Assembly: GCA_045805205.1 (NCBI GenBank) | Contig: JBJMLR010000009.1 | Span: forward strand, 197,658 to 261,657 | DNA from: Bacteroidia bacterium | Lineage (GTDB): Bacteria; Bacteroidota; Bacteroidia; 2-12-FULL-35-15 | Length of the DNA stretch: 64,000 nt | Reading direction: 5' to 3' | Part shown: in pieces, positions 36,354-59,540 of the stretch | How the letters are laid out: every line of letters begins with the position of its first letter | Position numbering within the stretch: position 1 is the first letter of the stretch | The notes under the pieces: model-generated | The model's input: only the letters and a program-made list of their open reading frames with translations | The model's database searches: none | Told to the model about the DNA's origin: nothing | Position numbers and translations under genes: made by a program

Positions 36354-37838
36354 TCATAGAAAAGTAATCCCGACATGCTTCAGGTTCTTCCTGATCTTAC
36401 CGTTCAGCTCCGGCGCAGCTTCCGTTTTCAGGATCAGGAAGATGAAAATTCCTCCGACGATCGCGCTTCGTATCGCGATATCCGGGATCAAATGTCCTGT
36501 GTACGGAATTAGCATTCCGGGTGCAAGAGCGACTACGGAAATCAGCAATAACTTCAATGAATTAAGATCGTAAGGCTGCATTTTGTAAGTGACCTTCAGG
36601 AAAAGAAAGCGGAGGGAATTATTTGCAACCACCGTAACTGCCGTCGCAATTGCGGAGCCGGCGATTCCATATTTCGGAATAAAAATGAGATTAGCCGCCA
36701 CCACCAATCCTACCATCAGGAAAACAAAGAAAGCGTCAAAGCGGTAATACTTTGAATTTGCAATGATCACCTGGTTGATCCCCGTTGCCATTTCCACAAG
36801 ATATCCCGCACTCAGGATGAGAATCACATATTTGCCGGAAGCATACGCAGGAGGAAGCAGCTGCATGATATTATCAATATTGGCTGCGATCCCGATAAAT
36901 AAAAGAAGTCCAATGGTCAGCTGGCTGTTGCATGACTTCGCATAAAGGGAAGCGATCTCTCGGAGATCTTCTTTTTTGAATGCTTCCGCTACAATTCCGG
37001 TCATGATCCGGTAAAGTGAACGTGCAGGAATGAGAATGATCGTTCCGAACTGGAAAGCGATCCCGTAGATCCCCGCTTTGTCTTCTCCCAGCATGGAGTT
37101 CACCATGATCGCATCGATGTTCAGAATAATTGCTCCTGCACCGCCTGCCAGAATGGAATACACGCCCAGCCGGATCATTTCCGCTCTCAGCTCTGCACTC
37201 ATGAAGCCCCGGATCGGCCTGATATGCCATTCGCCCTGGCGAACGATAAAAGCGAGCAAAATGATGGTCGGCAGACAAACCAGTGAAATGTAGAGCAAAA
37301 TAAAAATTCGGAATTCAATGATCTTCAAGAAGTAAATAAGCAATAGCGCCATGATCAGTATGCGCTGAAGAAAATCTTTGCTGAATGAACCAATGACCGA
37401 GTTGTACGTCGCCCGGAGGTAGCTGTCGAAAATATTAAAAAATACAGTGAAGAATGTCAATGGCATCAGGTAAAAAAGATACGTGACGAACAGCGGGGAC
37501 TTTGCCTGGTTACGCACGATCAGCGATGGCTGAAGGAAAACGAATACGACATAACAGATCGCAAACCCGATCAGCGTGATCAGCAATGCATAAAACAGGA
37601 AGCCATGATGCCCCTTGTCCTTGTTGCGGAAGTAAGGAAAGAAACGGTTGGTGACCGAAGTAAAGCCGAGATTGGCAAATTGTGCGAAGAGCGCTGAGTA
37701 AGAAACAAGGATCCGGAGCACACCATTTTCTGATGGATTGAACAGGTGCGACATCCACATAACGGTAAGAAAACCAAGCCCGGCTCCGAGATAGGAGTAG
37801 ACCGCGTTACGCGTTGCTTGTTTTTCGATGATGCCCAA
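36354..37838 (-). CDS. polysaccharide biosynthesis protein / Wzx-like oligosaccharide flippase
   Basis: 494 aa with about 12-14 TM helices. N-terminus NAVYSYLGAGLGFLTVMWMSHLF..RILVSYSALFAQFANLGFTSVTNRFFPYF is of the Polysacc_synt family. It is a paralog of 50650..52113. Confidence 0.7.
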   Translation of the reverse strand: MGIIEKQATRNAVYSYLGAGLGFLTVMWMSHLFNPSENGVLRILVSYSALFAQFANLGFTSVTNRFFPYFRNKDKGHHGFLFYALLITLIGFAICYVVFVFLQPSLIVRNQAKSPLFVTYLFYLMPLTFFTVFFNIFDSYLRATYNSVIGSFSKDFLQRILIMALLLIYFLKIIEFRIFILLYISLVCLPTIILLAFIVRQGEWHIRPIRGFMSAELRAEMIRLGVYSILAGGAGAIILNIDAIMVNSMLGEDKAGIYGIAFQFGTIILIPARSLYRIMTGIVAEAFKKEDLREIASLYAKSCNSQLTIGLLLFIGIAANIDNIMQLLPPAYASGKYVILILSAGYLVEMATGINQVIIANSKYYRFDAFFVFLMVGLVVAANLIFIPKYGIAGSAIATAVTVVANNSLRFLFLKVTYKMQPYDLNSLKLLLISVVALAPGMLIPYTGHLIPDIAIRSAIVGGIFIFLILKTEAAPELNGKIRKNLKHVGITFL

Positions 37839-37844
37839 GTGCTT

Positions 37845-38885
37845 CTAGAAATGGTCTTTGCTAAGCGGTGTTCCTGCTTTCAGGTCTTTTGCAGCGGTTT
37901 TTCCGATCACCTGTTCCCAGTATCTGGGAGCCAACCCGGTTGCGGGCCGGATGATCCTGAGGTTGTCGCTGCTGAATGCTTCTCCTTTTTTAACGTCCTT
38001 AGAAACGAAGATCGAACGCTTAAATTGCATGCTCTTTTCTTCTGCCGGTAAAATGCCTTTCTGTATCACTCCCAGCGAAAGAAATGCGCGTTCCGTTTCT
38101 ACAACCAGGGAATGCAATTCTTCCGGTTCGAGGGAAAATGCGCTGTCAACACCACCGTCAGCTCTCCTCAGTGTAAAATGTTTTTCGATCACGCGGGCAC
38201 CCAATGCCACTGCCGCCACGGAAGCGCCTACACCCATTGTATGATCCGAAAGACCAGTAACACAATCAAATGTATTGATGAAATCGGGGATCGTGTTGAG
38301 ATTGGTATTCTCCGGTGTTGCCGGATAAGTGCTGGTGCATTTCAAAAGGATAATGTCCTTGCATCCCGCTTTTCTCAATACTTCAATACTCTCTGTAATG
38401 TCTTCACGGGTGGTGACGCCGCTCGAGATGATCACCGGCTTGCCGGTAGCAGCTACTTTTTTCAGCAGCGGGTGATGAGTGTTTTCGAACGATGCGATCT
38501 TATACATCGGAACATTCAATGTTTCCAGGAAATCAACAGCCGTTTCATCGAATGGCGAGCTGAATGCAAGCATTCCTTTTTCTTTTGCCCGGTCAAAAAT
38601 AGGCTTGTGCCATTCCCAGGGAGTATATGCCATTTTGTAAAGGTCATGCAGCTCTTTTCCGTTCCAAAGTGAATTCTTGTCTTCGATCGTGTAAGCGCCT
38701 TTCATCGTGATCGTATCGGCAGTATAGGTTTGCAGCTTAAGCGCATGCGCACCGGCTGCCGCTGCTGCATCCACGAGCTCCAGCGCGCGGTCCAGCGACT
38801 GGTTATGATTGCCGCTCATTTCAGCAATAATGAAAGGCTTGTGGTTCTTGCCTATTGTAATATTTCCAATTTTGATATTCTGCAT
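37845..38885 (-). CDS. pseI: NeuB-family nonulosonic acid synthase, pseudaminic acid synthase by context
   Basis: 346 aa. FIIAEMSGNHNQSLDRALELVDAA... (NeuB TIM-barrel) plus a C-terminal SAF/antifreeze-like domain. It is adjacent to pseG/H, pseF, pseC and pseB. Confidence 0.75.
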   Translation of the reverse strand: MQNIKIGNITIGKNHKPFIIAEMSGNHNQSLDRALELVDAAAAAGAHALKLQTYTADTITMKGAYTIEDKNSLWNGKELHDLYKMAYTPWEWHKPIFDRAKEKGMLAFSSPFDETAVDFLETLNVPMYKIASFENTHHPLLKKVAATGKPVIISSGVTTREDITESIEVLRKAGCKDIILLKCTSTYPATPENTNLNTIPDFINTFDCVTGLSDHTMGVGASVAAVALGARVIEKHFTLRRADGGVDSAFSLEPEELHSLVVETERAFLSLGVIQKGILPAEEKSMQFKRSIFVSKDVKKGEAFSSDNLRIIRPATGLAPRYWEQVIGKTAAKDLKAGTPLSKDHF

Positions 38886-38886
38886 A

Positions 38887-40374
38887 TTATGCTTTTTTTC
38901 TGAATAGTTTATGACTCGGAATCCCTTGCTCCGTCACTGTTTCCTCGTTTCCGAATCCTGCTTTTAAAAAGCTGTTGTAGGAAGCGTCGTTTCCGATCTT
39001 AATATAAGCTGTGATCGTCGCATCCGGATTCTTCGTCAGAAAATCATCACCGGCAATGCTCAGCATATCTGCCGCCAGACCTTTTCCCCTGAAGTCAGGA
39101 TCAACCGAGATCCCGATCACTGTTTCTTTTCCGCTTGTGTCGATCCGGACTTGTCCGACAGGCTTTTCAGCAGCATTCAGGAACAAATAAAAGAAACACG
39201 TTCCTGAAGACAGTTTTGCGTTGAACCATTTTACATGATCTTCGTATTTTACCTGCGACTGATTATATGATTGCGCTCTTACCAGCGGGTCATTTGTCCA
39301 GATAAAATAAAAATCGGTATCCGCCGGAGTGGCCATTCTGAAATGAAGCGGTTCCTTTCTCAGACCGGCGAATGCGGTTCTGAAACGCTCCGGTGACTTA
39401 CCGTCAATATACTTCGATTGCTGCCGGACCAGGTCGTTAAGGTCTTCGATCGCTAATTGTGAGAATTGTTCCTGAATTGCAGATATTGAAAGCAGATTCA
39501 GATCACCCAGGCTGATCGCGACTTTGTTTTGAATCAAGCCCCGGAGAATTCCTTTTTGATTGTCGGCTGTGTATCCACTCAGCAGGCCGATACCGGTTGC
39601 GCAGCATTCCATGGAAATGCTGCTGGCCGGACAAATTGCCACATCACATTTTTGAAGAAGGCTCACCAGCTCATCGGCGCTTATATCGAAGTGTTTGTGA
39701 ATTTTTACGGAAGAGCTTTTCGCAATGAGCTCATCGATCTTTCCCAGGTGCGGATTTGCGGCTCCCAGCATCAAATGAATTTCACCGATCCCCTGAATAC
39801 CGGTCAGTGCTTCACAAAACTTCTGCGTGATGTTATTTGCATCGGCAGCACCCATGCTGATGAAAACATTTTTTATGGCCGCGATCGCACGTATTTCTTT
39901 TTTCTCAAGGAACGGTGCTCTCAAAAGCGCGTAATCCGGTCCGAGCAGATATTTTGTATAGGGTTCGGCGGAATAATCCGATCTTTCAGCCGTTGCAGCA
40001 TGATTGATGATCATATCAGCCACATGATGCCAGGAATGCAGGTCATCGATCGCAACCAGCTTACATCCTTTTGCTTTGATCGTCTTCTGGTAATCGGTTC
40101 TGAATTCATATCCATCCAGCAATACAATATCGGATGGATCAAGAAAGCCCGCCAGGTTTTTTACATCCTTCTCAGGGTCCGTTTCTAAAGGCAGATGAAA
40201 AATAGTTTCTGTTATTTTATGAATAGCACGGATCACATGTTCGGATGGCTGCTGCACGGCAAACATGATCTGAAAATCATGTTTCAGCATATCTGCAAGC
40301 GCGAGGCTGCGGATGATATGTCCCATCCCGATAGCAGTGCCGCCGTCGGCCCGTATAACCAGCTTTGGTTTCAA
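38887..40374 (-). CDS. pseG: bifunctional PseG-like UDP-sugar hydrolase (N-terminal) fused to a GNAT N-acetyltransferase (PseH-like, C-terminal)
   Basis: N-terminus KLVIRADGGTAIGMGHIIRSLALADML resembles PseG. The C-terminal ~160 aa carry a GNAT core (GISVDPDFRGKGLAADML). Confidence 0.65.
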   Translation of the reverse strand: MKPKLVIRADGGTAIGMGHIIRSLALADMLKHDFQIMFAVQQPSEHVIRAIHKITETIFHLPLETDPEKDVKNLAGFLDPSDIVLLDGYEFRTDYQKTIKAKGCKLVAIDDLHSWHHVADMIINHAATAERSDYSAEPYTKYLLGPDYALLRAPFLEKKEIRAIAAIKNVFISMGAADANNITQKFCEALTGIQGIGEIHLMLGAANPHLGKIDELIAKSSSVKIHKHFDISADELVSLLQKCDVAICPASSISMECCATGIGLLSGYTADNQKGILRGLIQNKVAISLGDLNLLSISAIQEQFSQLAIEDLNDLVRQQSKYIDGKSPERFRTAFAGLRKEPLHFRMATPADTDFYFIWTNDPLVRAQSYNQSQVKYEDHVKWFNAKLSSGTCFFYLFLNAAEKPVGQVRIDTSGKETVIGISVDPDFRGKGLAADMLSIAGDDFLTKNPDATITAYIKIGNDASYNSFLKAGFGNEETVTEQGIPSHKLFRKKA

Positions 40375-40377
40375 ATC

Positions 40378-41430
40378 TTATTTTACAAGTATGATTTTAT
40401 GAGTTCCGGATTCATTTCCGGTATTTACGGTGACAAAATAAACCCCGGCCGGTTGAGCTGAAAGATCAATCATAGATTCTTTATTCTCCGAGTGCTTCCA
40501 GCCGACCTGGTTTCCCAGGATGTCGTAAATCAACACATCAAAGCCCGTAGCCTGGGTATCGTTCACCTTTATTCCGAAAACTCCGGAGGAAGGATTCGGG
40601 TAGATGTTAAAATTCGTCAGCGTCCCCGGCTCAGAAATCCCAACGTTGGTTGGCCCCAGGTAAATTGCGTTAATTTCAGCTGCATTCAGCAGCCTGTCAT
40701 AAATTCTGATGTCATCGATCTTTCCATGGAAGTCATACGATGAAGCTGCACATAGAGTTCCTGAGGATGTAAGCGTTGTTGCCGTTCCCAAATGAGCAGT
40801 TCCGGCCTGCATATTTCCGAGTGTGCCGGATGGCGGAAGTGCAGCTGAAATAGTCTGCATAACATTGTTCACATACATTTGTACACGGCCGAGACCTCCT
40901 GCGGTTCCATTTGTACCATCATACATCGCGACAACGTGATACCACATGCTCGTGTCGGTAACGCTGGTTGAGCCTTGTGCGTAAACTGCATTTCCCGTTC
41001 CCAGCGAACTGCTGTAAAGCAGCATGATTTTTCCGCCATAAACGCTGAGTGCAAATTGCTGCTGTGCTGATGAACAGGCTCCGTCAGCATCTTTTGTCAG
41101 AATGCCGCTTGCTGCAGCAGTAGCATAAGGTTTAATCCAGACAGAGATCGAAAATTTATTTCCTACCCCGGAAAATGCAGTATTAAGTACGTTCCCGAAA
41201 TCAACATAATCGCTTGATCCATTATAGAAATAAGCACAATTCGGATTGCCAAACCGATCGGTAGTGAGTGTGGCACCTACTACAGTTCCGTTAAGTCCGC
41301 TGCCGCTGTCGTCATTCGCATTTCCTGTAAAGGGATACGATGCGGAGAGTCCACTTCCAAGCGATATCTGCGCATTTGCTACGGAAAAAGTGATGCCCAG
41401 AAGCAGAATAAATAAGTAGATCTTTTTCAT
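40378..41430 (-). CDS. LamG/concanavalin-like jelly-roll domain protein with a T9SS C-terminal sorting domain
   Basis: Signal peptide. DDIRIYDRLLNAAEI is the typical LamG_3 ending. C-terminus NIYPNPSSGVFGI...GVYFVTVNT is a T9SS CTD. Confidence 0.55.
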   Translation of the reverse strand: MKKIYLFILLLGITFSVANAQISLGSGLSASYPFTGNANDDSGSGLNGTVVGATLTTDRFGNPNCAYFYNGSSDYVDFGNVLNTAFSGVGNKFSISVWIKPYATAAASGILTKDADGACSSAQQQFALSVYGGKIMLLYSSSLGTGNAVYAQGSTSVTDTSMWYHVVAMYDGTNGTAGGLGRVQMYVNNVMQTISAALPPSGTLGNMQAGTAHLGTATTLTSSGTLCAASSYDFHGKIDDIRIYDRLLNAAEINAIYLGPTNVGISEPGTLTNFNIYPNPSSGVFGIKVNDTQATGFDVLIYDILGNQVGWKHSENKESMIDLSAQPAGVYFVTVNTGNESGTHKIILVK

Positions 41431-41456: not shown

Positions 41457-42290
41457 TTAAACCTGTTCAGGGACAAGTTTTATTATTTCTACATTTTTTT
41501 GTGCTGCCGTCTCCAATGCAGCGGAACTGTATTTTGATGCGCGAAGGTTGTCGAGCGTATCTTTCCTCTTTAGTGAATATTCATTGATATACCGATCAAG
41601 ATGACTTGAGCGCAAAGCGAACGTCATAAAAAGCGAAATGCGTTCAAACTGCTGGTCCTTTTTGAGGAATGCCGGAACCATTCCTTCACGTCCGGCCTTA
41701 TTGATCGAAAATTCAGGAAAGAATTTCAGCCGGACCGCATTTCCGCTATGAAGCGTCTTTAGACTCCAGACAGCTACGTCGCCGGCTTCATTACCGACAA
41801 GTACGGACTTCCCGTCGGGGTTTTTATGGCTTCCTACTTTAATTTTCAAGCCACCGCTGTAGTTTTTATGATCCTGCAGATAAATTCCAAGGCGGATCAG
41901 TGTATACTCTCCCTGCCAATCCGGTCCGCTCAGATCGGTACGGTCAATGCAGTCGCGGTGAAAACCACGCTGTCCTGTTCCGATCTGGTAGGAGCTATCG
42001 CCGAAATAAATGATGTTCGGGTCACCCAGTATTGTTCGTGCAATTTCCAGGATCCGTTCGTCAAGCAGGATCGGGTAAAGCTTTTCTTTGCTCAGCAGAT
42101 CACCTTTATTGTACTTCGCTTTTGTCGGAAGATTCGGCAGCTGGAAATCCAGCTTCTTGCTTTTATCGATCTCGTATTGTTCGTAGGCCAGCTTTCTGAA
42201 TTGCCCGATCTCATCGGCGCTGAAAACGTTTCGAACCAGCAGGTACCCGTCCTGATCAAACTTCTTTTTATCGATGATCAAATTGCTCAT
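41457..42290 (-). CDS. PhyH-family (phytanoyl-CoA dioxygenase-like) 2OG-Fe(II) oxygenase
   Basis: GFHRD (HxD) and a later H in ...LKTLHSGN. The length and pattern match PhyH-like hydroxylases. Confidence 0.55.
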   Translation of the reverse strand: MSNLIIDKKKFDQDGYLLVRNVFSADEIGQFRKLAYEQYEIDKSKKLDFQLPNLPTKAKYNKGDLLSKEKLYPILLDERILEIARTILGDPNIIYFGDSSYQIGTGQRGFHRDCIDRTDLSGPDWQGEYTLIRLGIYLQDHKNYSGGLKIKVGSHKNPDGKSVLVGNEAGDVAVWSLKTLHSGNAVRLKFFPEFSINKAGREGMVPAFLKKDQQFERISLFMTFALRSSHLDRYINEYSLKRKDTLDNLRASKYSSAALETAAQKNVEIIKLVPEQV

Positions 42291-42292
42291 GG

Positions 42293-43048
42293 CTATGTTT
42301 TCTTTTGTTCTATGTGTGCATTTATTGCGACTAACTCAGGATGTTCCAGCAGAATTTTTTCAATTTCAGTGTAAGGAAGCTTGTCAGCATTGTATTCTTC
42401 GATCAGCGTTTTAACGAGCTGGAAATCATCATCGGTATCAACCGTGATCCTCAGGTTGGAGTGGTTTTCGGACTGCTTTACATGATATAAGCTGGTCACT
42501 CCTGATCTGTTCTTCCAGATGTAAGGCGTTACATGCTCCAGGTCCGAGGGCTCCTTTGCATTACTGATAGCCTGTTCCAGGGACCGGGCGCTGAAAATTT
42601 CGAAATCAAAACCGCGGGCAAATGTCCGCTCGATCGCATTGCTGAGATAGAGGTTGGGATCATTCAGCTGCATGTATTTTTCAATGCCGTTCCGAATTAA
42701 ATGCGGATCGATGAGCGGACAATCGGAAGTGACACGAACAATCGTTTCAATCTTATTTTTTTGGACAGCTCCCCAGAAGCGGTCGAGGACATTTTCCTCG
42801 CTTCCGCGGTAATATTTCAGGCTATTCTTTTCGGCAAACTCACAAACAGGGTTGTCGGTATCATTTGTTGTGGTAGCGATGATCACCTCAAACCCAGCCT
42901 GTTTCAAACGATCGGTATGATATTTCAGCAATGGAATTCCGTTCACTTCTTTCAATATCTTTCCTGGCAAGCGAGTGCTGGTCATGCGTGCCTGTGTGAT
43001 GATACCGATTTTGGGTAAATGCGGGGTCATTAATTTTTGAATTTCCAA
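42293..43048 (-). CDS. pseF: cytidylyltransferase (CTP_transf_3 / SpsF-like), candidate CMP-pseudaminic acid synthetase
   Basis: IGIITQARMTSTRLPGKILK is the signature of acylneuraminate/SpsF-type cytidylyltransferases. It may start at the internal Met (MTPHL...). It lies in the pse cluster. Confidence 0.6.
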   Translation of the reverse strand: MEIQKLMTPHLPKIGIITQARMTSTRLPGKILKEVNGIPLLKYHTDRLKQAGFEVIIATTTNDTDNPVCEFAEKNSLKYYRGSEENVLDRFWGAVQKNKIETIVRVTSDCPLIDPHLIRNGIEKYMQLNDPNLYLSNAIERTFARGFDFEIFSARSLEQAISNAKEPSDLEHVTPYIWKNRSGVTSLYHVKQSENHSNLRITVDTDDDFQLVKTLIEEYNADKLPYTEIEKILLEHPELVAINAHIEQKKT

Positions 43049-43833
43049 ACGATGAGGTTCGCCGAATTAAGCGGAACCAGTCCAAAAACATCTGTTCTGA
43101 ACTCAAGGATCTCAATATTCTTTTTATTTTTTAAAACACTGACGAGGTTTCGGTTATAGTCATTGAGCTCTAAATATTTATTTCGCATCATGCCCAGGAG
43201 TGAATCGCGCTCCTCGATCACTGTCGGTTCAAAGTGAACAACATAGTTGATCTTTTCTTTTTGCTTTTCAAGACTTTCGATGATTACGGTCGCATCGGGG
43301 ATCTGTTCGATGCTGTGTGTTGTAAAGACCGTTGAATTAGGGCGGATGAAATCGTAATCTCCGCTTTCGTAATAATTGAATTCGCGGACATCCATCCCGA
43401 TCTTTTTTCCGATCGCCAGCGCATTTCTCGAATAATCACCTCCATAAGCTTTTGCTCCCAGCAGACTGAGATTGAAACCATAGCCGCATCCCAGTTCACA
43501 CATGTTCGAAGATGAATATTTTTTCAGCGTCGAGCCGATCAGCTCATAGTACTGTTTTCTTGCCTCCGCTACCGTTGTCTTGTAAATGTCGTCACCAATA
43601 GAAATGGTCATGTCGCCGGTTACGGGATGCAGGCCCGCCTGCTGAAATTCCATCGCTTTGTATGCTTCTGCATCAGGCAGGTCGCAGGCAAGCAATCGTG
43701 CATATTTATCGAGATTGTATTCATTCTCGACCTGCTGAACATCACGTTTTTTTTGAAACTCAGTCATTCCCAGTAATCGTTTGCTCCAGGGATTATTCTT
43801 GTTCAGGTACTCGTTTACTGAAATTGCTTTCAT
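43030..43833 (-). CDS. class I SAM-dependent methyltransferase
   Basis: Motif I ELGCGYGFN and a Rossmann-like pattern. Embedded in the pse cluster. Confidence 0.6.
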   Translation of the reverse strand: MKAISVNEYLNKNNPWSKRLLGMTEFQKKRDVQQVENEYNLDKYARLLACDLPDAEAYKAMEFQQAGLHPVTGDMTISIGDDIYKTTVAEARKQYYELIGSTLKKYSSSNMCELGCGYGFNLSLLGAKAYGGDYSRNALAIGKKIGMDVREFNYYESGDYDFIRPNSTVFTTHSIEQIPDATVIIESLEKQKEKINYVVHFEPTVIEERDSLLGMMRNKYLELNDYNRNLVSVLKNKKNIEILEFRTDVFGLVPLNSANLIVWKFKN

Positions 43834-45002
43834 TTGTTTTTTATATAGCTTAGGATAGTGCTGATCACACGGTCCTGGTCCTCATTGCTCAGTGAATGGT
43901 ACATCGGAATACTCAGGCATTTTTCATAATACGCCTCCGCCAGCGGATGATCGCCCTTTTTATGTCCGAACTGCTTGTAGTACGGCATGAGGTGAACCGG
44001 TACATAATGAACCTGGGCAAAAATATTTTCAGAGCGGAGATGTTCGTAAAGCCCCGGACGATCATCCACGCTGATCACATACAGGTGATAGGCATTTCCT
44101 TCGATCGAAGGAGCGGGGATCACTTTCGTTCCTTTAAATGCATTGTCGTAGCGCTTAGCGAGTTCGATCCTTCGCGCCAGATTCTCACCGGCTCTTTGCA
44201 TCTGTGATGTCCCGAGCGCAGCCTGAAAATCGGTAAGTCGATAGTTGTAACCGAGCTCCTGCATTTCATAGTACCATCCGCCCTGCGCAATTTCGTCGGG
44301 AGAATTTTTGTATTTCGTTGCATCCTTCGTGATACCGTGGGTGCGAAGCAGGTTGATCTTATCGTAAAGCGCTTTGCTGTTGGTTGTGATCATGCCGCCT
44401 TCACCGGTTGCGATGTGTTTTACAGGATGAAATGAAAAGATCGCGAGGTCGGCAAAATTCCCGTTCCCGCAGTTCTGCTTTATTCCTTTGCTGTCGGTAA
44501 AATATCCGCCCGGAGCATGACAGGCATCCTCGATGATCCAGCATCCGAAGTCATCTGCAAGCTTCCTGTATTCTTCAAGATTTACAGCATTCCCTGTAAA
44601 ATCAACAGGAATGATGCCGCTGAAGTAGCCTTTCGGATGTTTTTCAAGCAATGCCCGAACCTTTTTTATGTCGAGCAAAAACGTATCCGGATCGATATCG
44701 GCAAAATGAACTTCGCCTCCGCAGTAGCGTACACAATTTGCGGAAGCTGCAAAGGTGATAGGAGTTGTGATAACGCGTGTTCCTTCCTTTATGTCAAGCG
44801 CCATTGCGCAAAGGTGCAGCGCGGCCGTTCCATTGGAAAGCGCAATGGCATATTTCGCACCGGTGTATGCTGCAAAGGTCTTTTCAAATTCAGCGATTGC
44901 CGGCCCCTGTGTCAGGAAATCCGACCGCAGTGTTTTTGTTACGGCTTCGATATCCGCATCGGTGATCGTCTGGCGGCCGTAAGGAATAATTTTAGAGCTC
45001 AC
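43830..45002 (-). CDS. pseC: DegT/DnrJ/EryC1-family PLP aminotransferase, UDP-4-amino-4,6-dideoxy-N-acetyl-beta-L-altrosamine transaminase by context
   Basis: N-terminus IPYGRQTITDADIEAV...LTQGP...ALSNGTAALHL and the PLP-lysine region (HPVKHIATGEGG). Confidence 0.8.
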   Translation of the reverse strand: MSSKIIPYGRQTITDADIEAVTKTLRSDFLTQGPAIAEFEKTFAAYTGAKYAIALSNGTAALHLCAMALDIKEGTRVITTPITFAASANCVRYCGGEVHFADIDPDTFLLDIKKVRALLEKHPKGYFSGIIPVDFTGNAVNLEEYRKLADDFGCWIIEDACHAPGGYFTDSKGIKQNCGNGNFADLAIFSFHPVKHIATGEGGMITTNSKALYDKINLLRTHGITKDATKYKNSPDEIAQGGWYYEMQELGYNYRLTDFQAALGTSQMQRAGENLARRIELAKRYDNAFKGTKVIPAPSIEGNAYHLYVISVDDRPGLYEHLRSENIFAQVHYVPVHLMPYYKQFGHKKGDHPLAEAYYEKCLSIPMYHSLSNEDQDRVISTILSYIKNK

Positions 45003-45014
45003 TTATTTAAGAGA

Positions 45015-46031
45015 CTAGATTGAAAAAGTAGCGTCGACGTGTTCCCTGATCAGCTTGCGAAGATCGTCTACGGAAACCCATTCCTTGTTCTCGCCCGAAT
45101 TATACTGGAAGCCTTGCGGGACCAGCTTCGCATTGAAGCTTTTGACGTACTCATCGATCTTGAAATTGGGAACCTGCGGAAGGATCGCGTAGTATTTGCC
45201 CAGGTCGTAAGTAGTAAACGAATCGGAGGAAGTGATCATTTCTTCATGCACCTTTTCGCCGGGACGAATGCCGATGACTTCATGCTTACAATCGGGACCA
45301 ATTGCTTTCGCAACGTCTGTGATCTTGTAGGAAGGGATCTTCGGGACAAAGATCTCGCCGCCCCAGGCTGTTTCCATGGCGTGGAGCACCATATCGACAC
45401 CACCTTGCAGCGAAATATTGAAACGGGTCATATTCGGATCGGTGATCGGAAGCACACCTTCCTTTTTCTTTTTAAGGAAGAACGGGATCACTGATCCGTT
45501 GGAGCCCATTACGTTTCCATAGCGGACAACGGAGAATTTAATGTCCACTTTCCCGCGGATGTTATTCGCTGCGACAAACAATTTATCCGAGCAGAGCTTT
45601 GTTGCGCCATAGAGATTAATTGGCGCTGCGGCTTTATCGGTTGATAATGCCACGACATTCTTCACTTCGCTTTCCATGGCCGCATTGATCACGTTCTCAG
45701 CTCCCAATACATTTGTCTTCACACATTCCATCGGGTTGTATTCCGCGATGGGCACATGTTTCATTGCTGCTGCATGGATCACATAATCGATGCCCTTGAA
45801 TGCTTTTTTCAGGCGATCATAATCTCTTACATCACCGATGAAATAGCGGATGGCCGGATATTTCGTGTGGGAATATTCCTGGGCCATTTCGAATTGCTTC
45901 TGCTCATCGCGCGAGAAAATAACAAGTCGGCGTATATCCGGGAAACGGGATAAAATATTGCGGGTCAGGTGCTTTCCGAGTGATCCGGTACCACCTGTGA
46001 TCAAAATTGACTTTCCATTCAAATCCAGCAT
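45015..46031 (-). CDS. pseB: UDP-N-acetylglucosamine 4,6-dehydratase (inverting), PseB/FlaA1-type
   Basis: KSILITGGTGSLGKHL...VIFSRDEQKQFEM and YGATK (Y-x3-K). The length of about 338 aa is typical of PseB. Confidence 0.8.
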   Translation of the reverse strand: MLDLNGKSILITGGTGSLGKHLTRNILSRFPDIRRLVIFSRDEQKQFEMAQEYSHTKYPAIRYFIGDVRDYDRLKKAFKGIDYVIHAAAMKHVPIAEYNPMECVKTNVLGAENVINAAMESEVKNVVALSTDKAAAPINLYGATKLCSDKLFVAANNIRGKVDIKFSVVRYGNVMGSNGSVIPFFLKKKKEGVLPITDPNMTRFNISLQGGVDMVLHAMETAWGGEIFVPKIPSYKITDVAKAIGPDCKHEVIGIRPGEKVHEEMITSSDSFTTYDLGKYYAILPQVPNFKIDEYVKSFNAKLVPQGFQYNSGENKEWVSVDDLRKLIREHVDATFSI

Positions 46032-46178: not shown

Positions 46179-47417
46179 TTACTTAATGATCAGCTTTCCT
46201 GTACCGATCACGGATGTTCCGTCGAACACCTTGTAAAGATAAACACCTGCGTCCAGTCCGTTTCTGTTAAGACTGAAGATCCGGTTTTTAGATGCAGCCG
46301 TTTTTACCAGTTTTCCGCTGATATCGAAGAGTCCAACCGATTGCGCATTGCTGAAAGTATAATTGCTGCAGTCGATAGTAGTTGTCTCGGAAAATGGATT
46401 CGGATAAGCAGTGAAAACGTTCGCTGTTGTTTCTTCCTGGATCCCGACATTCGAAGTATATTTTAAAATAGTTCCGTTGAGTCCGGAAGCATATCCCACA
46501 TTGGCATTCACCACGTCCACCCGGTAAAGGCGTGCGGTTCCGGGATACGATGTTGTCCAGCTTGCTCCGCCGTTTGTTGTTGTAAGGATCGTTCCTGTAT
46601 TCAATGAGATGTCTCCGCCAACCACAAAGCCGTGATTGGAGTCATAGAAATCGATGCCCGAATAAAAAGCGGTGGATGTGTCGGATACCGTAACACCTGA
46701 CCAGGTTGTACCCGCGTCTGCAGTTGTTCTGACGGTTCTGTTGCCCCCGATTACAAGACCAGTGTTGACGCCCGTAAAATACAAGTTCTGAAGAGGCGAA
46801 GTTGTACCGCTTACCAGAGTGGTCCAGTTTGACCCTCCGTTCGTCGTTTTGAAGATCTTGCCGGAGAATTCTACAGCATAACCATCTGTTGACGAAGTAA
46901 AATAAGTGCCGTAAATCGCGATACCTGCACTGGCTCCGGTAACCGTTGTGTTGGTCCAGGTTGTACCGCCGTCGGTGGTTTTCAATATCACCGAAAGCGT
47001 GCTGCCGCTTCCGCCGCCGCTAATAAAACCCGTATTGGAGTCGATGAAAAAGATGTGACGGAAATTAACACCGGTCACAGGCATTGTCATTGCTGACCAG
47101 GTGGCACCTCCATTTGTTGTTTTTAACGCCGTAAGACCGTTCCCCACCGCATATCCTGTATTTGCATCAACAAAAAGAATGTAATACAGATCCTGGGTGG
47201 TCCCACTGATTTGCCCGTTCCAGGTGGTTCCGCCATCGGTGGTCTTTCTGATGGTTCCTGCCGCGCCGCATACATAAACTGTATTAATGGTTGGTGCAGA
47301 GATTCCATTAAGACTGCTCGTTGTCCCGCTGACAAGCGGCGTCCAGGCAACCGTTTGTGCAGCAATATTTCCCGCGAACAGAACAGCTGCAAATAAAAGT
47401 ACTTTGATCTTTTTCAT
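46179..47417 (-). CDS. BNR/Ycf48-like repeat protein with a T9SS C-terminal sorting domain
   Basis: Six or more T(T/S)(D/N)GG.(T/S)W BNR repeats. C-terminus FTAYPNPFSETTTI...GVYLYKV... is a T9SS CTD. Confidence 0.6.
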   Translation of the reverse strand: MKKIKVLLFAAVLFAGNIAAQTVAWTPLVSGTTSSLNGISAPTINTVYVCGAAGTIRKTTDGGTTWNGQISGTTQDLYYILFVDANTGYAVGNGLTALKTTNGGATWSAMTMPVTGVNFRHIFFIDSNTGFISGGGSGSTLSVILKTTDGGTTWTNTTVTGASAGIAIYGTYFTSSTDGYAVEFSGKIFKTTNGGSNWTTLVSGTTSPLQNLYFTGVNTGLVIGGNRTVRTTADAGTTWSGVTVSDTSTAFYSGIDFYDSNHGFVVGGDISLNTGTILTTTNGGASWTTSYPGTARLYRVDVVNANVGYASGLNGTILKYTSNVGIQEETTANVFTAYPNPFSETTTIDCSNYTFSNAQSVGLFDISGKLVKTAASKNRIFSLNRNGLDAGVYLYKVFDGTSVIGTGKLIIK

Positions 47418-47473: not shown

Positions 47474-48148
47474 CTACCGGTTTTGAGAGTTAAACTCGCC
47501 GATATTCAGGAACTTTTCCTTGTTTTTTTTGAGCCACTCCAGGTCCTTATCCCACCATTTGAACTTCATAAGGAATTCGATCTGCTCCTGGCTGAAGCGG
47601 TATTTGATCACTTTTGCCGGAACTCCGCCTACGATACTATACGGTTCCACATCTCTTGTCACCACTGCGCCGGATCCGATGATCGCGCCATCACCGATTT
47701 TTACGCCGTAACGTATGATGGCATTATTACCGATCCACACATCATTGCCGATCTCGGTGGAAGGAAATTCATCAAAAAGATTTTTCTCCACGATCACCAG
47801 TCCTGACGATTGTCCGAGTGTAGAGTAGAAGAGAGGATGCGTTGAAACAAACTCAGCCGAGGGATGAGCTCCCATGCCTGTGCTGACATTCGGTCCGATA
47901 CAGGTGAACTTTCCGACCTTTGTATTGTAGAGCTGGGAGTTCCTTGCAACGTAACTGAAATCGCCCAGCTCGGAGTCGCGAAGCCGTGCGAACTTATATA
48001 CCGTATTGTAATTATTGAATTTGCAATTGCTTACTTCTGCCATGTACTCAAGGTGCAGATGCTGACTGCGATACTTCATTTCCAGCGACCATTTCCGGAA
48101 CAGCCATCGTAACCAATATGTGCATGGATTCTGAAACAGTGCGCGCAT
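47474..48148 (-). CDS. hexapeptide-repeat (CatB/XAT-family) sugar O-acetyltransferase
   Basis: Left-handed beta-helix hexapeptides: [35 protein letters not shown]. Confidence 0.7.
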
Positions 48149-48150
48149 TG

Positions 48151-49041
48151 CTATAATTTTTTTCGTTCAAAAGCATCTACAAAGGAAACTTCGCTTGCAT
48201 TATAAACCTTGCAGTTCTGCGAGCGGGCATACTTTTCAAGTGCAATATAACCATAAAATGTTTTTGCCCAGGTGTGAAAGATCTCGTCCATTCTGAATGT
48301 TTCCGTAAGGTGTGCACCCTTTGTGAATGGAATATATTTTACGGTCCTCACATCATCATAAAAATGGATGTGCTTAAGATGTAGCTTATTATGCTCGTCC
48401 AGATAAAGGCTTTCATGCCACGTATGATCAGCGCCAACCAGGTCCACTTCTTCAAAACCCATATTGATCGCCAGGAAAGTAGCTGCCACAAGTACATTTT
48501 GCGCTTGCGGCATCGCCATATTACGCCGGTAGAACCAATGCGCAATCCCGGCGAATCCTTTAAAAACGGTATAGTTGAAATACCGGAGCTCGACATTGCT
48601 GTTCTTTTTACTTAAGGCTGAAAATCGTTCGCTGCCGGAGGCCATCTGCGGAACAAAAAGGATCATTTTCCAGGTGGTGCGTTTTTCGATCGCATCGATC
48701 ACATCCAGTGTTGCCTTTTCATTACTTTTCCAAAAGCTGTAATCGAGGATCACGTAGAAGGAAGGCTTTAATAGTTCATATTCCGGGGTCAGGGAAAAGG
48801 AATTCACACAAAATAACGGAAGCGACGAAAAAAGTCCGGAATGTTTTTCCAGGGAGGCTTTCAGCGAAGGGCCGTTGCCAAGCACAATACATCTTTTTTC
48901 CTTCGTTAGGGGAATACGGTTCCTCAGCTTTGAACGTGCAGGTATTTTCAACAGCGAGATGCCGGTGTTGACCAGGCGAGTGAAAAAGCCTCCGGCTTCC
49001 TTGTATGTGCTTTCCGCTGACATGCGTTGCAAATGTAGCAA
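48151..49041 (-). CDS. DUF115 / Maf-like (motility-accessory-factor-like) protein, candidate nonulosonic-acid (pseudaminic acid) transferase
   Basis: The [10 protein letters not shown] motif matches the conserved G.GPSL of DUF115/MptE-like/Maf proteins. It lies in the pse glycan locus. Confidence 0.5.
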
Positions 49042-49123: not shown

Positions 49124-49852
49124 ATGAACAGCCTCGAACGCATAACCAAAAAGATATTTCAGAATTTCGGTATCCTGATCCGGAAATACAATCCTGCTAC
49201 CAGCGAGGAGCTTCGCCGGATCCGCCTTTTCGGGCATTATGACATCGACCTCGTGTTCGATATCGGTGCCAATAAAGGACAATATGCCAAAGGGATCATG
49301 GATGCGGGCTATAAAGGCAGAATAGTTTCTTTTGAGCCATTGTCAGCAGTACATGCTATCATTGCTTCTGAAGCCAAGGGAAGCGCTACCTGGGAAGTGG
49401 CGCCGCGCTGTGCGATCGGTGCGAAAAAAGAGGAGATCGAGATTCATATTTCTGCGAATTCAGTGAGCAGCACTTTGCTGAATATGCTGGACTCGCACAT
49501 TGAAGGTGCCCCGGAATCAAAGATCATCGGGAAAGAAAAAGTACAGGTTTTACCGCTGGATGAGATCGGCGGCAGCTATATAAAAAATGCGAAGAACCTT
49601 TTTCTGAAGATCGATGTACAGGGCTTTGAGCAGGAAGTGCTGAAAGGAGCACAGCAAATGATCGCGAAAGCAAAAGGAATTGAAATGGAAATTTCCCTGG
49701 TTCCTTTGTATGAAGGACAGGATTGGCTGCTTCCGCAGATCCTCGCATACATGGAAGAAAAAGGATTCATCCTGACCAGCATCGTTCCTGCCTTCACCGA
49801 TCATAAAACCGGAAGGGTATTGCAGTGCAACGGGATCTTCTACCGGAAATAA
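49124..49852 (+). CDS. FkbM-family methyltransferase
   Basis: The DIDLVFDIGANKGQYAKG motif is typical of Methyltransf_21 (FkbM). Confidence 0.7.
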   Translation: MNSLERITKKIFQNFGILIRKYNPATSEELRRIRLFGHYDIDLVFDIGANKGQYAKGIMDAGYKGRIVSFEPLSAVHAIIASEAKGSATWEVAPRCAIGAKKEEIEIHISANSVSSTLLNMLDSHIEGAPESKIIGKEKVQVLPLDEIGGSYIKNAKNLFLKIDVQGFEQEVLKGAQQMIAKAKGIEMEISLVPLYEGQDWLLPQILAYMEEKGFILTSIVPAFTDHKTGRVLQCNGIFYRK

Positions 49853-50602
49853 ATGGACTTCAATCCGAAAATAAGCATCATCACCGTCGTTTACAACGCA
49901 CATGCGCTGATCGAAAGGACGGTAAGATCGGTGCTTTCACAAGACTGGAACAACATCGAATACATTATCATCGATGGCGGCTCGTCCGACGGAACACTTG
50001 AAATAGCAGAGAAATATTCTTCGCAGATCGCGCTGATCCATTCGGGTAAAGACAATGGAATTTATGATGCGATGAACAAAGGATTGAAGGATGCAACCGG
50101 CGACTATGTGCTTTTCCTGAATGCCGGTGATACTTTTTATTCGAAGGATGTGATCCGGAGAGTATTTGCAAACGGTGAAGCCGATGTGTATTATGGCAAC
50201 ACCGCCATTGTGGACAGCCAGGAGAATATCATTGGCGACAGGAGATTAACGCCGCCGGAAGTGCTTAACTGGAGAAGCCTGCGTTTTGGAATGTGTGTCT
50301 CTCACCAGTCGTTTATTGCGCGGCGAAAAATCTGTGAGCCCTACGATCTTGATTATAAGGTCAGCTCCGATATCGATTGGGTGATCCGCGTGCTGAAAAA
50401 ATCCGGGAGGATCCTCAATATACAGGGGTATATTTCCTGTTTCCTCGAAGGTGGTGTTTCAAACAGGCGGAGAAAAAAAGCGCTTGGGGAACGATTCAGG
50501 ATCATGAGCCGGCACTATGGCTTTTTCCGGACGTTAGTTAATCATATTTATATCTTGCTCCGTTATCCTTTTCATCGTTTCACAAGACGATCGATGACCT
50601 GA
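49853..50602 (+). CDS. family-2 glycosyltransferase
   Basis: ISIITVVYNAHALIERTVRSV...IIIDGGSSDGT (GT2 DxD). Confidence 0.8.
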   Translation: MDFNPKISIITVVYNAHALIERTVRSVLSQDWNNIEYIIIDGGSSDGTLEIAEKYSSQIALIHSGKDNGIYDAMNKGLKDATGDYVLFLNAGDTFYSKDVIRRVFANGEADVYYGNTAIVDSQENIIGDRRLTPPEVLNWRSLRFGMCVSHQSFIARRKICEPYDLDYKVSSDIDWVIRVLKKSGRILNIQGYISCFLEGGVSNRRRKKALGERFRIMSRHYGFFRTLVNHIYILLRYPFHRFTRRSMT

Positions 50603-50649: not shown

Positions 50650-52113
50650 TTGAATACGATCAGGAAACAGGGAATCAGCAATGCCATCATCATATACCTT
50701 GGTGCGGTGATCGGCTTTGTCAGCCTGATGTTCATTCAGCCGCATCTGCTGCAGGCAAAAGAGCTCGGACTTACCCGGATCCTCGTTGCTGCCGCCAGCC
50801 TTATTGCGACGGTACTTCCGCTGGGGATCAGCAGCGTCACCACCCGTTTCTTTCCTTATTTCCGCAACGAGGAAAAAAAGCATTTCGGATATTTCGGCTT
50901 TATGCTGCTCGTGGTGCTTGCGGGGACACTGCTCTCGGGGATCATTGTATATGTTTTTAAAAAGGCGATCATTGCGGAGTACATCGAACAGTCGCCGCTT
51001 TTTGTGGATTACTATGATCTTTTATTGCCGCTTGCAATGGTAATGGGGATCAACATCGCCTTGAATTCTTATTCCGCTTCTCTTTTCCGTACAACGCTGG
51101 TCACCTTTCTCGAAAGTATTTATTCCCGCCTTGCATTCGTCCTGCTCATCGTCCTTTATTATTTCCACTACCTGACGTTGAGCCAGTTCATCGGCTTTTT
51201 TGTTTTCAGTTATTTTATCCAGGCGCTTTGGCTGTGCTTGTATGTTTTCAGTATCGATAAACCTTCGATGATCATTGACCGGGAACAATTCCGGAAAGTG
51301 GGACTGAGCCGCTTGTTCGGCTATGGCTTGCTGCTTACACTCACGAATATCTCATCCTTGAGCATGAAATATTTTGATACCGTGCTGATCGGACATTACC
51401 TCAACCTGGAGGCAGTCGGTGTTTTTGCGGTAGGTGCATACATTTCGGTGATCATCGAGATCCCTTTGAATTCACTTGAGAAGATCTCCCATGCAAAAGT
51501 GTCGCAGGCCTGGGCAAACAATGATACGGAAAGCATTAAAGCTATTTATTACCAGTCGGTAAAATACCTGATGCTGATCGGCGGCTTGCTGGTGGTAGGA
51601 ATTATTACTAATGTGAATGAGCTGTTCATGCTGCTTCCTGAAAGTTATGCTCCTGCGATACCGGTTACGGTGATCTCCTGCATCGCGGCCTTTCTGAATG
51701 TTGCAACGGGTGTAAATACATCGATCATTTACAGCTCTTCGAAATACCTGTATGGGACCATTTTGCTGGCAATATTGCTGGTGCTTGCTGTCGGACTGAA
51801 TATGTGGCTGATCCCTCTGTATGGGATCATGGGAGCAGCGATTGCAACAGGATTGCTGGCGATCGTTTACAATGCAACGAAATACATTATTATCCTGGTT
51901 CTTTTTAAAATGCAGCCCTATGATCTGTCGAGCTTAAAGATCATTTTTGTGATCGCGGTTTCTTTTCTCACGGCCTGGCTGATGCCTTTGTTCAAAGATC
52001 CTGTTGTTACGATGGCTTGCCGGGCGGCGGCGACAACGGCAGTGTATTGCGGATTGGCTTATTTCCTTAAGATCGCGCCGGAGCTGCACAAATACATTCC
52101 GGGAAATAAATAG
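50650..52113 (+). CDS. polysaccharide biosynthesis protein / Wzx-like flippase (paralog of 36354..37838)
   Basis: 487 aa. N-terminus NAIIIYLGAVIGFVSLMFIQPHLL..RILVAAASLIATVLPLGISSVTTRFFPYF is near-colinear with the other flippase. Confidence 0.7.
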   Translation: MNTIRKQGISNAIIIYLGAVIGFVSLMFIQPHLLQAKELGLTRILVAAASLIATVLPLGISSVTTRFFPYFRNEEKKHFGYFGFMLLVVLAGTLLSGIIVYVFKKAIIAEYIEQSPLFVDYYDLLLPLAMVMGINIALNSYSASLFRTTLVTFLESIYSRLAFVLLIVLYYFHYLTLSQFIGFFVFSYFIQALWLCLYVFSIDKPSMIIDREQFRKVGLSRLFGYGLLLTLTNISSLSMKYFDTVLIGHYLNLEAVGVFAVGAYISVIIEIPLNSLEKISHAKVSQAWANNDTESIKAIYYQSVKYLMLIGGLLVVGIITNVNELFMLLPESYAPAIPVTVISCIAAFLNVATGVNTSIIYSSSKYLYGTILLAILLVLAVGLNMWLIPLYGIMGAAIATGLLAIVYNATKYIIILVLFKMQPYDLSSLKIIFVIAVSFLTAWLMPLFKDPVVTMACRAAATTAVYCGLAYFLKIAPELHKYIPGNK

Positions 52114-56231: not shown

Positions 56232-56350
56232 AGGATCGGATATGAATTCTACACGTAAATATAGAAGATTTTTGGATAAGAGAAGTAGAATACCGCCTTC
56301 TGCAATGGCATGTGTTTTTTCTGCATCCTCCTGGAAACAAAAGAGATCAA

Positions 56351-59162: not shown

Positions 59163-59540
59163 ATGTCATATGTAAGAGTGTGGGTGCATCTGGTGTTTTC
59201 AACAAAAAACAGGGAGACACTGCTGAAAAAAGAAATCCGCGAGCAAATCCGACAACACATCAAAGAAAATTGCAAGGAGAAAGGTATTTTCCTCCAGGCA
59301 ATTAATGGCTACGAAGACCACTTACATTGTCTTATATCCCTGGGCTGTGACCAAACCATCGCCAAAGTTGCCCAAATGATAAAGGGCGAATCCTCTTATT
59401 GGATCAACAAGAACAAACTAGTACCCGGAGAGTTCATGTGGCAAAATGAATATTATGCCAATTCCGTTAGTGAGTCAGAAAAAAGAAAAATCGAAAGCTA
59501 TATCAGAAATCAAGAGAAGAAACATGCAATTTCAGGGTAA
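59163..59540 (+). mobile_element. IS200/IS605-family Y1 (HuH) transposase, possibly a REP-associated tyrosine transposase (RAYT)
   Basis: 125 aa. MSYVRVWVHLVFSTKNRE..., HuH motif HLHCLIS and the catalytic-Tyr region GESSYWINK. There is no companion tnpB. Confidence 0.8.

Follow-up and report, generated by a model that had tools for sequence, protein, structure and literature searches.

Enzymes that attach the nonulosonic acids (NulOs) pseudaminic acid (Pse) and legionaminic acid (Leg) to targets other than flagellin are barely known, and the few examples have unrelated folds. The closest described systems are the Maf glycosyltransferases, the Campylobacter transferases Cst-II and CstI, two transferases of Tannerella forsythia, and, by Pfam family name, the archaeal enzyme MptE. 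Here we analyze a gene in a 64,000-nucleotide stretch of DNA from a Bacteroidia bacterium (contig JBJMLR010000009.1, positions 197,658 to 261,657; hereafter 'the window', numbered from its first nucleotide). The gene lies in a Pse locus and encodes a 290-residue protein of family PF01973, formerly DUF115 (hereafter 'the DUF115 protein'), for which a first-pass annotation of the sequence had proposed a role in Pse transfer.

Maf proteins (for example, Magnetospirillum magneticum Maf, with structure 5MU5; Campylobacter and Helicobacter PseE/Maf; Aeromonas Maf1; and CbMaf of Clostridium botulinum) have PF01973 in common with the DUF115 protein, provide the best structural match of its model, and, like it, are encoded by genes linked to Pse/Leg biosynthesis genes. 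However, Maf proteins comprise ~600 residues in three domains (632 residues for 5MU5), whereas the DUF115 protein comprises 290 residues in one domain. The Maf acceptor is flagellin, whereas the DUF115 locus has no flagellin or flagellar genes and belongs to a non-flagellated phylum, and the partners of the DUF115 gene (a GT2 glycosyltransferase, Wzx flippases, an acetyltransferase, and a YfhO-family GT-C protein) suggest that the acceptor is a glycan or is lipid-linked, and not a protein Ser/Thr as for Maf. The Pfam match is the only direct sequence link between the two. With one domain and no flagellar context, the DUF115 protein falls outside Maf in the narrow sense. The first-pass designation 'DUF115/Maf-like' thus holds for the family and for a fold nearest that of Maf, but does not extend to the N- and C-terminal domains of Maf or to flagellar genes.

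Cst-II and CstI belong to CAZy family GT42 (structures 1RO7 and 2P2V). Cst-II is a single-domain protein of 291 residues, similar in size to the DUF115 protein; it shares GNGPSL, C-x-N-x-F, and G-x-D motifs with the DUF115 family; and it acts on an oligosaccharide, as the DUF115 protein would. The C. jejuni transferase locus also encodes a hexapeptide sialate O-acetyltransferase. However, the Cst-II catalytic apparatus (Tyr156, Tyr162, and His188) lies in a C-terminal third that does not align with the DUF115 family, which has H200, W202, H220-F221, N275, and D283, and the Cst-II donor sugar is N-acetylneuraminic acid (Neu5Ac), whereas that of the DUF115 protein is presumably Pse or Leg. Given the absence of a PF06002 match and of an alignment over the catalytic half, the DUF115 protein, as judged from its sequence, is not recognizably a member of GT42.

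The T. forsythia transferases Tanf_01245 and TFUB4_00887 (445 and 442 residues), which act in the general O-glycan with Pse and Leg derivatives, have a TagB/GT-B superfamily domain (PMC5420450). Tannerella belongs to the same phylum as the window, and its transferase gene lies beside a strain-specifically swapped Pse/Leg cassette, with a methyltransferase gene nearby, an arrangement comparable to that of the window and a related locus, L006 (see below). However, the Tannerella fold is unrelated to that of the DUF115 protein, which matches PF01973 only and not the TagB/GT-B domain, and the window locus encodes no protein of the Tannerella type. The first-pass annotation had cited the Tannerella O-glycan as a precedent for DUF115 proteins as Pse/Leg transferases; this precedent falls away, and, since the Tannerella enzymes are of TagB/GT-B type, the proposed phylogeny with TfPseT and TfLegT would compare unrelated folds. 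MptE (6-hydroxymethyl-7,8-dihydropterin pyrophosphokinase; 8SD5) has the same Pfam family name and is the second structural match; it is an archaeal enzyme of ~215 residues that catalyzes ATP pyrophosphoryl transfer and has no C-terminal extension, and its pterin context is lacking in the window locus.

The DUF115 protein and its predicted fold

The open reading frame (ORF) reported in the first-pass annotation, 48151..49041 on the minus strand, is uninterrupted and comprises 296 codons counted from a TTG at 49041. The start, however, is the internal ATG at 49023: the equivalent start is common to all homologues (consensus MSxEKTYK), and the product of the gene (48151..49023, minus strand; stop codon at 48151-48153) therefore has 290 residues. 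A 100%-identical 290-residue entry is present in a public protein collection under 'MAG: Bacteroidia bacterium' (MAG, metagenome-assembled genome), with the name '6-hydroxymethylpterin diphosphokinase MptE-like protein'. Only 7-14 nt upstream of ATG 49023, at 49030-49037, the minus strand carries the octamer TACATTTG, which fits the Bacteroidota -7 promoter consensus TAnnTTTG. This position hints at a 5' leader that is very short or absent.

A search with the PF01973 model (MptE-like; formerly DUF115 / Maf_flag10), which the first-pass annotation had called for, yields a score above the gathering cut-off (38.1 vs. 34.6 bits; E 1.7e-9), with the match spanning protein residues 46-209 and positions 22-169 of the 171 of the model. 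Because 45 of 49 diverse relatives also match PF01973, the match is not due to chance. No NCBIfam model covers the protein. An AlphaFold2 model computed with 25 homologues as input (pLDDT 88; pTM 0.85) was compared with the PDB by use of Foldseek. The first-ranked match is the Magnetospirillum Maf glycosyltransferase 5MU5 (E 1.8e-6; probability 1.00); MptE is followed by the human sialyltransferase ST8SiaIII (E 2.7e-4), and weaker matches to SteA, ST6Gal1, and ST6GalNAc2 stand lower down.

Sequence comparisons gave a graded picture. A single-sequence phmmer search of the PDB returned only chance matches, to hapalindole cyclases; a broader profile of 49 sequences (A2) had no match in the PDB; and the family profile did not reach Maf 5MU5 by hmmsearch. 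A tighter profile of the close family (A1), however, matched Campylobacter Cst-II by hmmsearch (E 0.0025), and hhalign aligned the family profile with Cst-II over 153 columns, residues 43-205 vs. Cst-II residues 2-160, at 94.3% probability (E 1e-7; Cst-II sequence checked beforehand against PDB entries). PF06002 (CST-I) had no match to the DUF115 protein at E <= 0.01. The Maf_flag10 domain has been described in published work as a modified GT-A fold related to Cst-II in the donor-binding region. The best explanation of the results is that residues ~43-205 form a Rossmann-like CMP-sugar-binding domain common to Maf (PF01973) and GT42 Cst-II. The acceptor and catalytic side would be made up of the last ~85 residues, which are specific to the family. 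Full-text searches retrieved no publication on the 290-residue clade.

Conserved residues

Conservation was counted over 348 family members. The GPSL-type motif of 10 residues named in the first-pass annotation is present, and a second motif follows in the C-terminal part of the aligned region:

48862..48891, minus strand: 10-residue motif containing GNGPS, residues 45-54, predicted nucleotide-binding loop (conservation and Cst-II alignment)
48415..48435, minus strand: GADHTWH motif, residues 197-203, with Asp199 pairing with Cst-II D154

N50, G51, P52, and S53 are each kept in 336 to 347 of the 348 members, D94 in 335, G197 in all 348, D199 in 337 (Glu in the other 11), H200 in 331, and W202 in 337. 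The hhalign alignment pairs G49-N-G-P-S53 with Cst-II G8-S12, C-V-N74 with C-N31, L-D94 with Y-N51, and G197-A-D199 with G152-I-D154, and pairs Thr201 with the phosphate-binding Tyr156 of Cst-II. The Cst-II residues in the four aligned motifs reportedly contact CMP in the Cst-II structure described by Chiu et al. in 2004. His200 and Trp202 are specific to the family, and the near-invariant family residues outside the likeness to Cst-II are H200, W202, N212, H220-F221, F256, Y265, N275, and D283-A-F. Because the window protein retains every residue conserved in >=90% of the 348 members, it looks functional at the sequence level; with the exception of one V/I swap, it departs from no position conserved in >=85%. 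Ala174 was considered as a possible defect and rejected: 24 close homologues have Ser at this position (in an AMPQSQN loop), but the position is not strongly conserved over the 348 members.

Because the C-terminal third does not align with Cst-II, assignments of catalytic residues are guesses; the candidates are D94, D199, H200, and H220. Mutagenesis of Maf has identified essential residues (D324 and E415 in MmMaf; D272, S334, and D357 in CbMaf). By a comparison of spacing only, D94, N176/S174, and D199 occur in the same order and with similar spacing, N176/S174 being ~23-25 residues before D199, like the Maf Ser.

Linkage to nonulosonic-acid genes

The DUF115 clade comprises 532 clusters at 90% identity (word-indexed search) and at least 1,950 representatives at 50% identity (E <= 0.001), 456 of them with E <= 1e-30. 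The best 150 of the 50%-identity representatives are all ~290 residues long; homologue length is 286-310 residues. Among contigs from one genome per species, 324 stretches encode a relative, and 79 of the best 80 have a Bacteroidota name. Carriers include Chitinophaga, Pedobacter, Pseudopedobacter, Arcticibacter, Solitalea, Fibrella, Spirosoma, Flectobacillus, Chryseobacterium, Crocinitomicaceae, and many MAGs.

We surveyed the best 80 of the 324 stretches, with 10 kb on either side, by comparison with the window proteins. NulO genes are present within 10 kb in 61 of the 80 loci, and the loci divide as follows:

Pse-type loci (PseB at >=60% identity): 40 of 80, with only PseB in reach in 16 of the 40
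Only PseI in reach: 1 of 80
True PseB with a different NeuB-type synthase: 5 of 80
Leg-like cluster: 15 of 80
No NulO gene in reach: 19 of 80

By our own estimate, chance would place a random gene this close (10 kb) to a NulO cluster in well under 1% of cases; the linkage therefore is far beyond chance. The first-pass annotation had counted the placement of the gene between the acetyltransferase and the FkbM methyltransferase as support. The gene is so placed, but the placement alone is weak evidence, and the informative signal is the linkage to Pse/Leg genes across the 80 loci.

Locus L006 provides a direct comparison with the window. The two have the same flanks (M1 peptidase, TPR protein, Wzx, GT2, FkbM, acetyltransferase, and flippase; 61-86% identity), but L006 has, in place of the Pse cassette, a full legionaminic-acid cassette: LegB, LegC, and NeuB-, NeuC-, and NeuD-type genes, all of which exceed their respective NCBIfam cut-offs, together with a nucleotidyltransferase gene and a cytidylyltransferase gene. 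The L006 DUF115 orthologue is only 56% identical to the window protein, far more diverged than its neighbours, and Leg-linked DUF115 orthologues form sub-clades of their own, at least four times. Faster divergence of the DUF115 protein and separate Leg sub-clades are the pattern expected of an enzyme that recognizes the swapped sugar.

A third type of cassette is present in L009, L011, L012, L028 (extended by L081), and L060. It combines a true PseB (84-89% identical) with a NeuB-type synthase that is only 28-35% identical to PseI; PseC is present in two of the five loci; and L081 adds genes for PIG-L, metallophosphatase, ATP-grasp, and epimerase proteins. The DUF115 and acetyltransferase genes of these loci are in their usual place. 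One MAG (JAYWFU01) has two DUF115 paralogues on different contigs (L042 and L075), one followed by the acetyltransferase gene and the other adjoining a Leg-like cluster.

Organization of the Pse locus

The first-pass annotation had recognized a Pse locus, and, because PseB, PseC, PseG, and PseI all exceed NCBIfam equivalog cut-offs, the locus is real. The DUF115 gene is the head of a minus-strand operon, given here from head to end and followed by flanking genes; two products are type IX secretion system (T9SS) cargo proteins with the corresponding C-terminal domain (CTD), and counts refer to the 80 loci surveyed:

48151..49023, minus strand: DUF115 protein (PF01973)
47474..48148, minus strand: hexapeptide (XAT/CatB/Vat-class) O-acetyltransferase (Pfam Hexapep; PDB CatB/Vat, E 2e-29)
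46179..47417, minus strand: T9SS-CTD cargo, Ycf48-like BNR propeller, inserted between acetyltransferase and PseB; not core
45015..46031, minus strand: PseB, inverting UDP-GlcNAc 4,6-dehydratase (TIGR03589, 511 bits vs. cut-off of 408)
43830..45002, minus strand: PseC aminotransferase (TIGR03588, 462 bits vs. cut-off of 424)
43030..43833, minus strand: class I SAM-dependent methyltransferase, 267 residues (no Pfam match; CELGCGYG invariant in 25 homologues)
42293..43048, minus strand: divergent cytidylyltransferase (CTP_transf_3), presumed CMP-Pse synthetase (PF02348, 88 bits)
41457..42290, minus strand: PhyH-family dioxygenase, probable Pse side-chain tailoring (PF05721; in 20 loci)
40378..41430, minus strand: T9SS-CTD cargo with LamG domain, an insertion within the Pse operon; not core (in 1 locus)
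38887..40374, minus strand: PseG hydrolase fused to a GNAT (PseH-like) domain, residues 343-474 (TIGR03590, 205 bits vs. cut-off of 154)
37845..38885, minus strand: PseI pseudaminic acid synthase (TIGR03586, 485 bits vs. cut-off of 340)
36354..37838, minus strand: Wzx-like flippase 1, last gene of the operon (PF01943; in 43 loci)
33687..36242, plus strand: YfhO-family GT-C membrane protein, beyond flippase 1 (weak PF09586 match here)
49124..49852, plus strand: FkbM-family methyltransferase, divergent from the DUF115 gene (PF05050, TIGR01444; in 27 loci)
49853..50602, plus strand: WcaE-like GT2 glycosyltransferase, 249 residues (PF00535; best NCBIfam match WcaE, 104 bits, below cut-off; in 40 loci)
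50650..52113, plus strand: Wzx-like flippase 2 (Polysacc_synt; profile match)

The XAT acetyltransferase gene begins 2 nt past the DUF115 stop codon and is present in 47 loci; in 46 of these it immediately follows the DUF115 gene, and in L052 it lies upstream. Profile scans of ORFs of the locus detected no initiating phosphoglycosyltransferase, polymerase, or TagB-like transferase; the only glycosyltransferase candidates of the locus are the DUF115 protein and the WcaE-like GT2, and of these two the DUF115 protein alone shows a fold of CMP-sugar type. The 267-residue product was considered as a rival transferase and rejected: it is a class I SAM methyltransferase, homologues being named SAM-dependent methyltransferase in two sources and one homologue having PF13489. 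No flagellar genes were found among the ~50 larger window ORFs scanned, and none were recognized in related loci, which were screened mainly against window proteins.

The cytidylyltransferase gene co-occurs with Pse genes in 23 loci. The genes for the PhyH dioxygenase and the class I SAM methyltransferase are kept with Pse genes in 20 and 11 related loci, respectively, which suggests that the Pse is tailored by hydroxylation or methylation. The two Wzx-like flippases, one at each end of the locus, are paralogues, each ~28-30% identical to the orthologues of the other; a single flippase is present in the minimal, Pedobacter-type module. Most YfhO homologues carry PF09586 and the name 'YfhO family protein', and the YfhO gene accompanies the DUF115 module in two gene orders: at the flippase end in window-type loci and beside the GT2 gene in Pedobacter, Solitalea, and Arcticibacter (YfhO-linked loci: window, L081, L082, L030, L047-L050, L061, L064, L070, L073, and L077). 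The BNR propeller gene recurs at varying positions in 7 of the 80 loci, as well as in L081, which extends one of the 7; its product was considered as a sialidase-like enzyme, but matches Ycf48-type propellers instead.

GC content of the locus (0.45-0.48) is the same as that of its surroundings, and composition gives no indication of a foreign island here. Elsewhere in the window, the segment 22000-26000 has low GC content (0.34-0.35 vs. ~0.46), contains ORFs with no Pfam match and a gene for a HEPN_Swt1-like protein (24858-26045), and may be a foreign or defence island. Three more T9SS cargo genes lie at 12240-13883, 14343-16211, and 56312-57928. An IS200-type Y1 transposase gene (59163-59540, plus strand) adjoins a gene for a 651-residue protein (60567-62522, minus strand) that has a GT2 domain and an N-terminal exopolysaccharide (EPS)-type polyprenyl glycosylphosphotransferase part (CoA_binding_3) and is the nearest candidate for an initiating enzyme.

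Proposed function

We consider it probable that the DUF115 gene encodes a cytoplasmic, stand-alone, single-domain pseudaminyltransferase that uses a CMP-nonulosonate to cap a short lipid-linked glycan, which would be acetylated and methylated by the products of neighbouring genes and exported by Wzx. PseB, PseC, GNAT-PseG, and PseI, together with the divergent cytidylyltransferase, would make CMP-activated Pse, which the methyltransferase and the PhyH dioxygenase probably tailor; the DUF115 enzyme would move Pse onto a short lipid-linked glycan extended by the WcaE-like GT2; the XAT-class acetyltransferase and the FkbM methyltransferase would decorate the product; and a Wzx-type flippase would then export the decorated glycan. 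The DUF115 enzyme is of the kind expected in such a locus. The first-pass proposal of a candidate Pse transferase thus survives as the best reading of family, fold, linkage, and the sole protein of CMP-sugar type in the locus; the analysis establishes family membership, fold, homology of the donor-binding half, and linkage to NulO genes in 61 of 80 loci, and from these we infer transfer of Pse specifically, together with the donor, acceptor, order of steps, catalytic residues, and stereochemistry.

Several observations weigh against this reading. With regard to the protein, the Foldseek TM-score to Maf 5MU5 is modest (0.49, query-normalized); the second-ranked match is an archaeal pyrophosphokinase (MptE 8SD5, M. 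jannaschii HPPK; E 1.1e-5); the alignment with Cst-II stops at Cst-II residue 160, leaving unaligned the C-terminal third, where the catalytic His188 lies; and no residue cleanly divides Pse-linked from Leg-linked members, the most discriminating positions clustering at 229-245, none of them clean, in a comparison confounded by phylogeny. With regard to the locus, the cytidylyltransferase is not a canonical PseF (only 19 bits with the PseF model). With regard to the clade, of the 19 loci with no NulO gene in reach, ~9 have full or nearly full flanks. These ~9 loci, among them those of Pedobacter glucosidilyticus (L047 and L049) and Solitalea koreensis (L070) as well as L051, L032, and L057, keep only the GT2 and DUF115 genes, a flippase gene, and in some cases the acetyltransferase gene, some with YfhO; the conserved core therefore is a small module for glycan assembly that receives NulO cassettes as insertions. 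Finally, five close syntenic relatives (L001, L002, L054, L004, and L058) have no PseC anywhere in 20 kb, although they have PseB, methyltransferase, cytidylyltransferase, PhyH, PseG/GNAT, and PseI; PseC is present in the window, L062, L007, and L022. The loci that lack PseC may rely on a copy elsewhere in the genome; otherwise, their product would be a nonulosonate that lacks the 7-amino group.

Alternative explanations

The alternative that fares best, although we regard it as unlikely, is that the DUF115 protein is a CMP-ulosonate transferase whose donor is not specifically Pse: that is, that it is promiscuous, or in some genomes uses CMP-Kdo or another ulosonate, with NulO cassettes as interchangeable add-ons to a GT2-DUF115-acetyltransferase-flippase module. 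This would account for orthologues that adjoin Pse, Leg, or third-type cassettes, for intact DUF115 genes in the ~9 full-flank loci that have no NulO genes within 10 kb, and for the lack of a clean Pse/Leg-discriminating residue, and there is a published parallel in Clostridium botulinum Maf, which transfers Neu5Ac and Kdo besides its native sugar. It does not sit well with the separation of Leg-linked orthologues into sub-clades, or with identities of 55-62% for the DUF115 protein vs. 80-90% for its neighbours, as expected if the protein tracks the sugar or acceptor; and the sole activated ulosonate encoded nearby in the window is Pse.

Distinctly less probable is that Pse is transferred by another protein, either the adjacent GT2 or an unlinked enzyme of TagB/GT-B type, and that the DUF115 protein adds another residue to, or uses another substrate in, the same glycan. 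The only genetically proven Pse/Leg transferases of Bacteroidota, Tanf_01245 and TFUB4_00887, are indeed of TagB/GT-B type, but the ~20 larger ORFs at 31.8-52.1 kb of the window gave no match to TagB/Glyphos_transf or other GT-B transferases, the sole GT-B-related protein there being PseG, a hydrolase. The nearest functional neighbours of the DUF115 protein, furthermore, all use CMP-sugars. CMP-sugars, in turn, are not known as donors of WcaE-type GT2 enzymes.

That the protein is no glycosyltransferase at all, but an MptE-like pyrophosphokinase or a SteA-like nucleotide-binding regulator with a shared fold, as the naming of PF01973 after archaeal MptE, the second rank of 8SD5 in Foldseek, and the matches to SteA cell-division regulators could suggest, is very improbable, given a gene inside, and apparently co-transcribed with, a sugar-nucleotide/glycan operon across Bacteroidota families, homology to Cst-II that spans the CMP-binding residues of Cst-II, and no pterin or methanopterin context.

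Implications

According to a 2018 paper, protein glycans were still without an identified legionaminic acid transferase, and a 2025 review states that the oligosaccharyltransferase (OTase), ligase, and core flippase of Bacteroidota O-glycosylation are still unknown. We offer, as a tentative extension that we think rather unlikely to hold in full, the proposal that the clade as a whole is the Pse/Leg-capping transferase of a Bacteroidota module (GT2, DUF115, XAT, Wzx, and YfhO GT-C) that makes a short, nonulosonate-capped, acetylated or methylated lipid-linked glycan; that YfhO, as a candidate for the missing ligase/OTase, transfers this glycan to a periplasmic or outer-surface acceptor; and that the clade merits a glycosyltransferase family of its own between Maf and GT42.

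The DUF115 clade belongs, as a large, uncharacterized, single-domain branch, to the family that glycosylates the flagella of other bacteria. It provides a large and easily recognized set of candidates with natural Pse-to-Leg cassette swaps in the same locus, and its carriers include the cultivable Pedobacter, Pseudopedobacter, Fibrella, and Solitalea. If the reading is correct, the clade would supply pseudaminyl- and legionaminyltransferases for glyco-engineering, the misleading database name '6-hydroxymethylpterin diphosphokinase MptE-like' would be corrected, and there would be a handle on the assembly of nonulosonate-capped surface glycans in environmental Bacteroidota.

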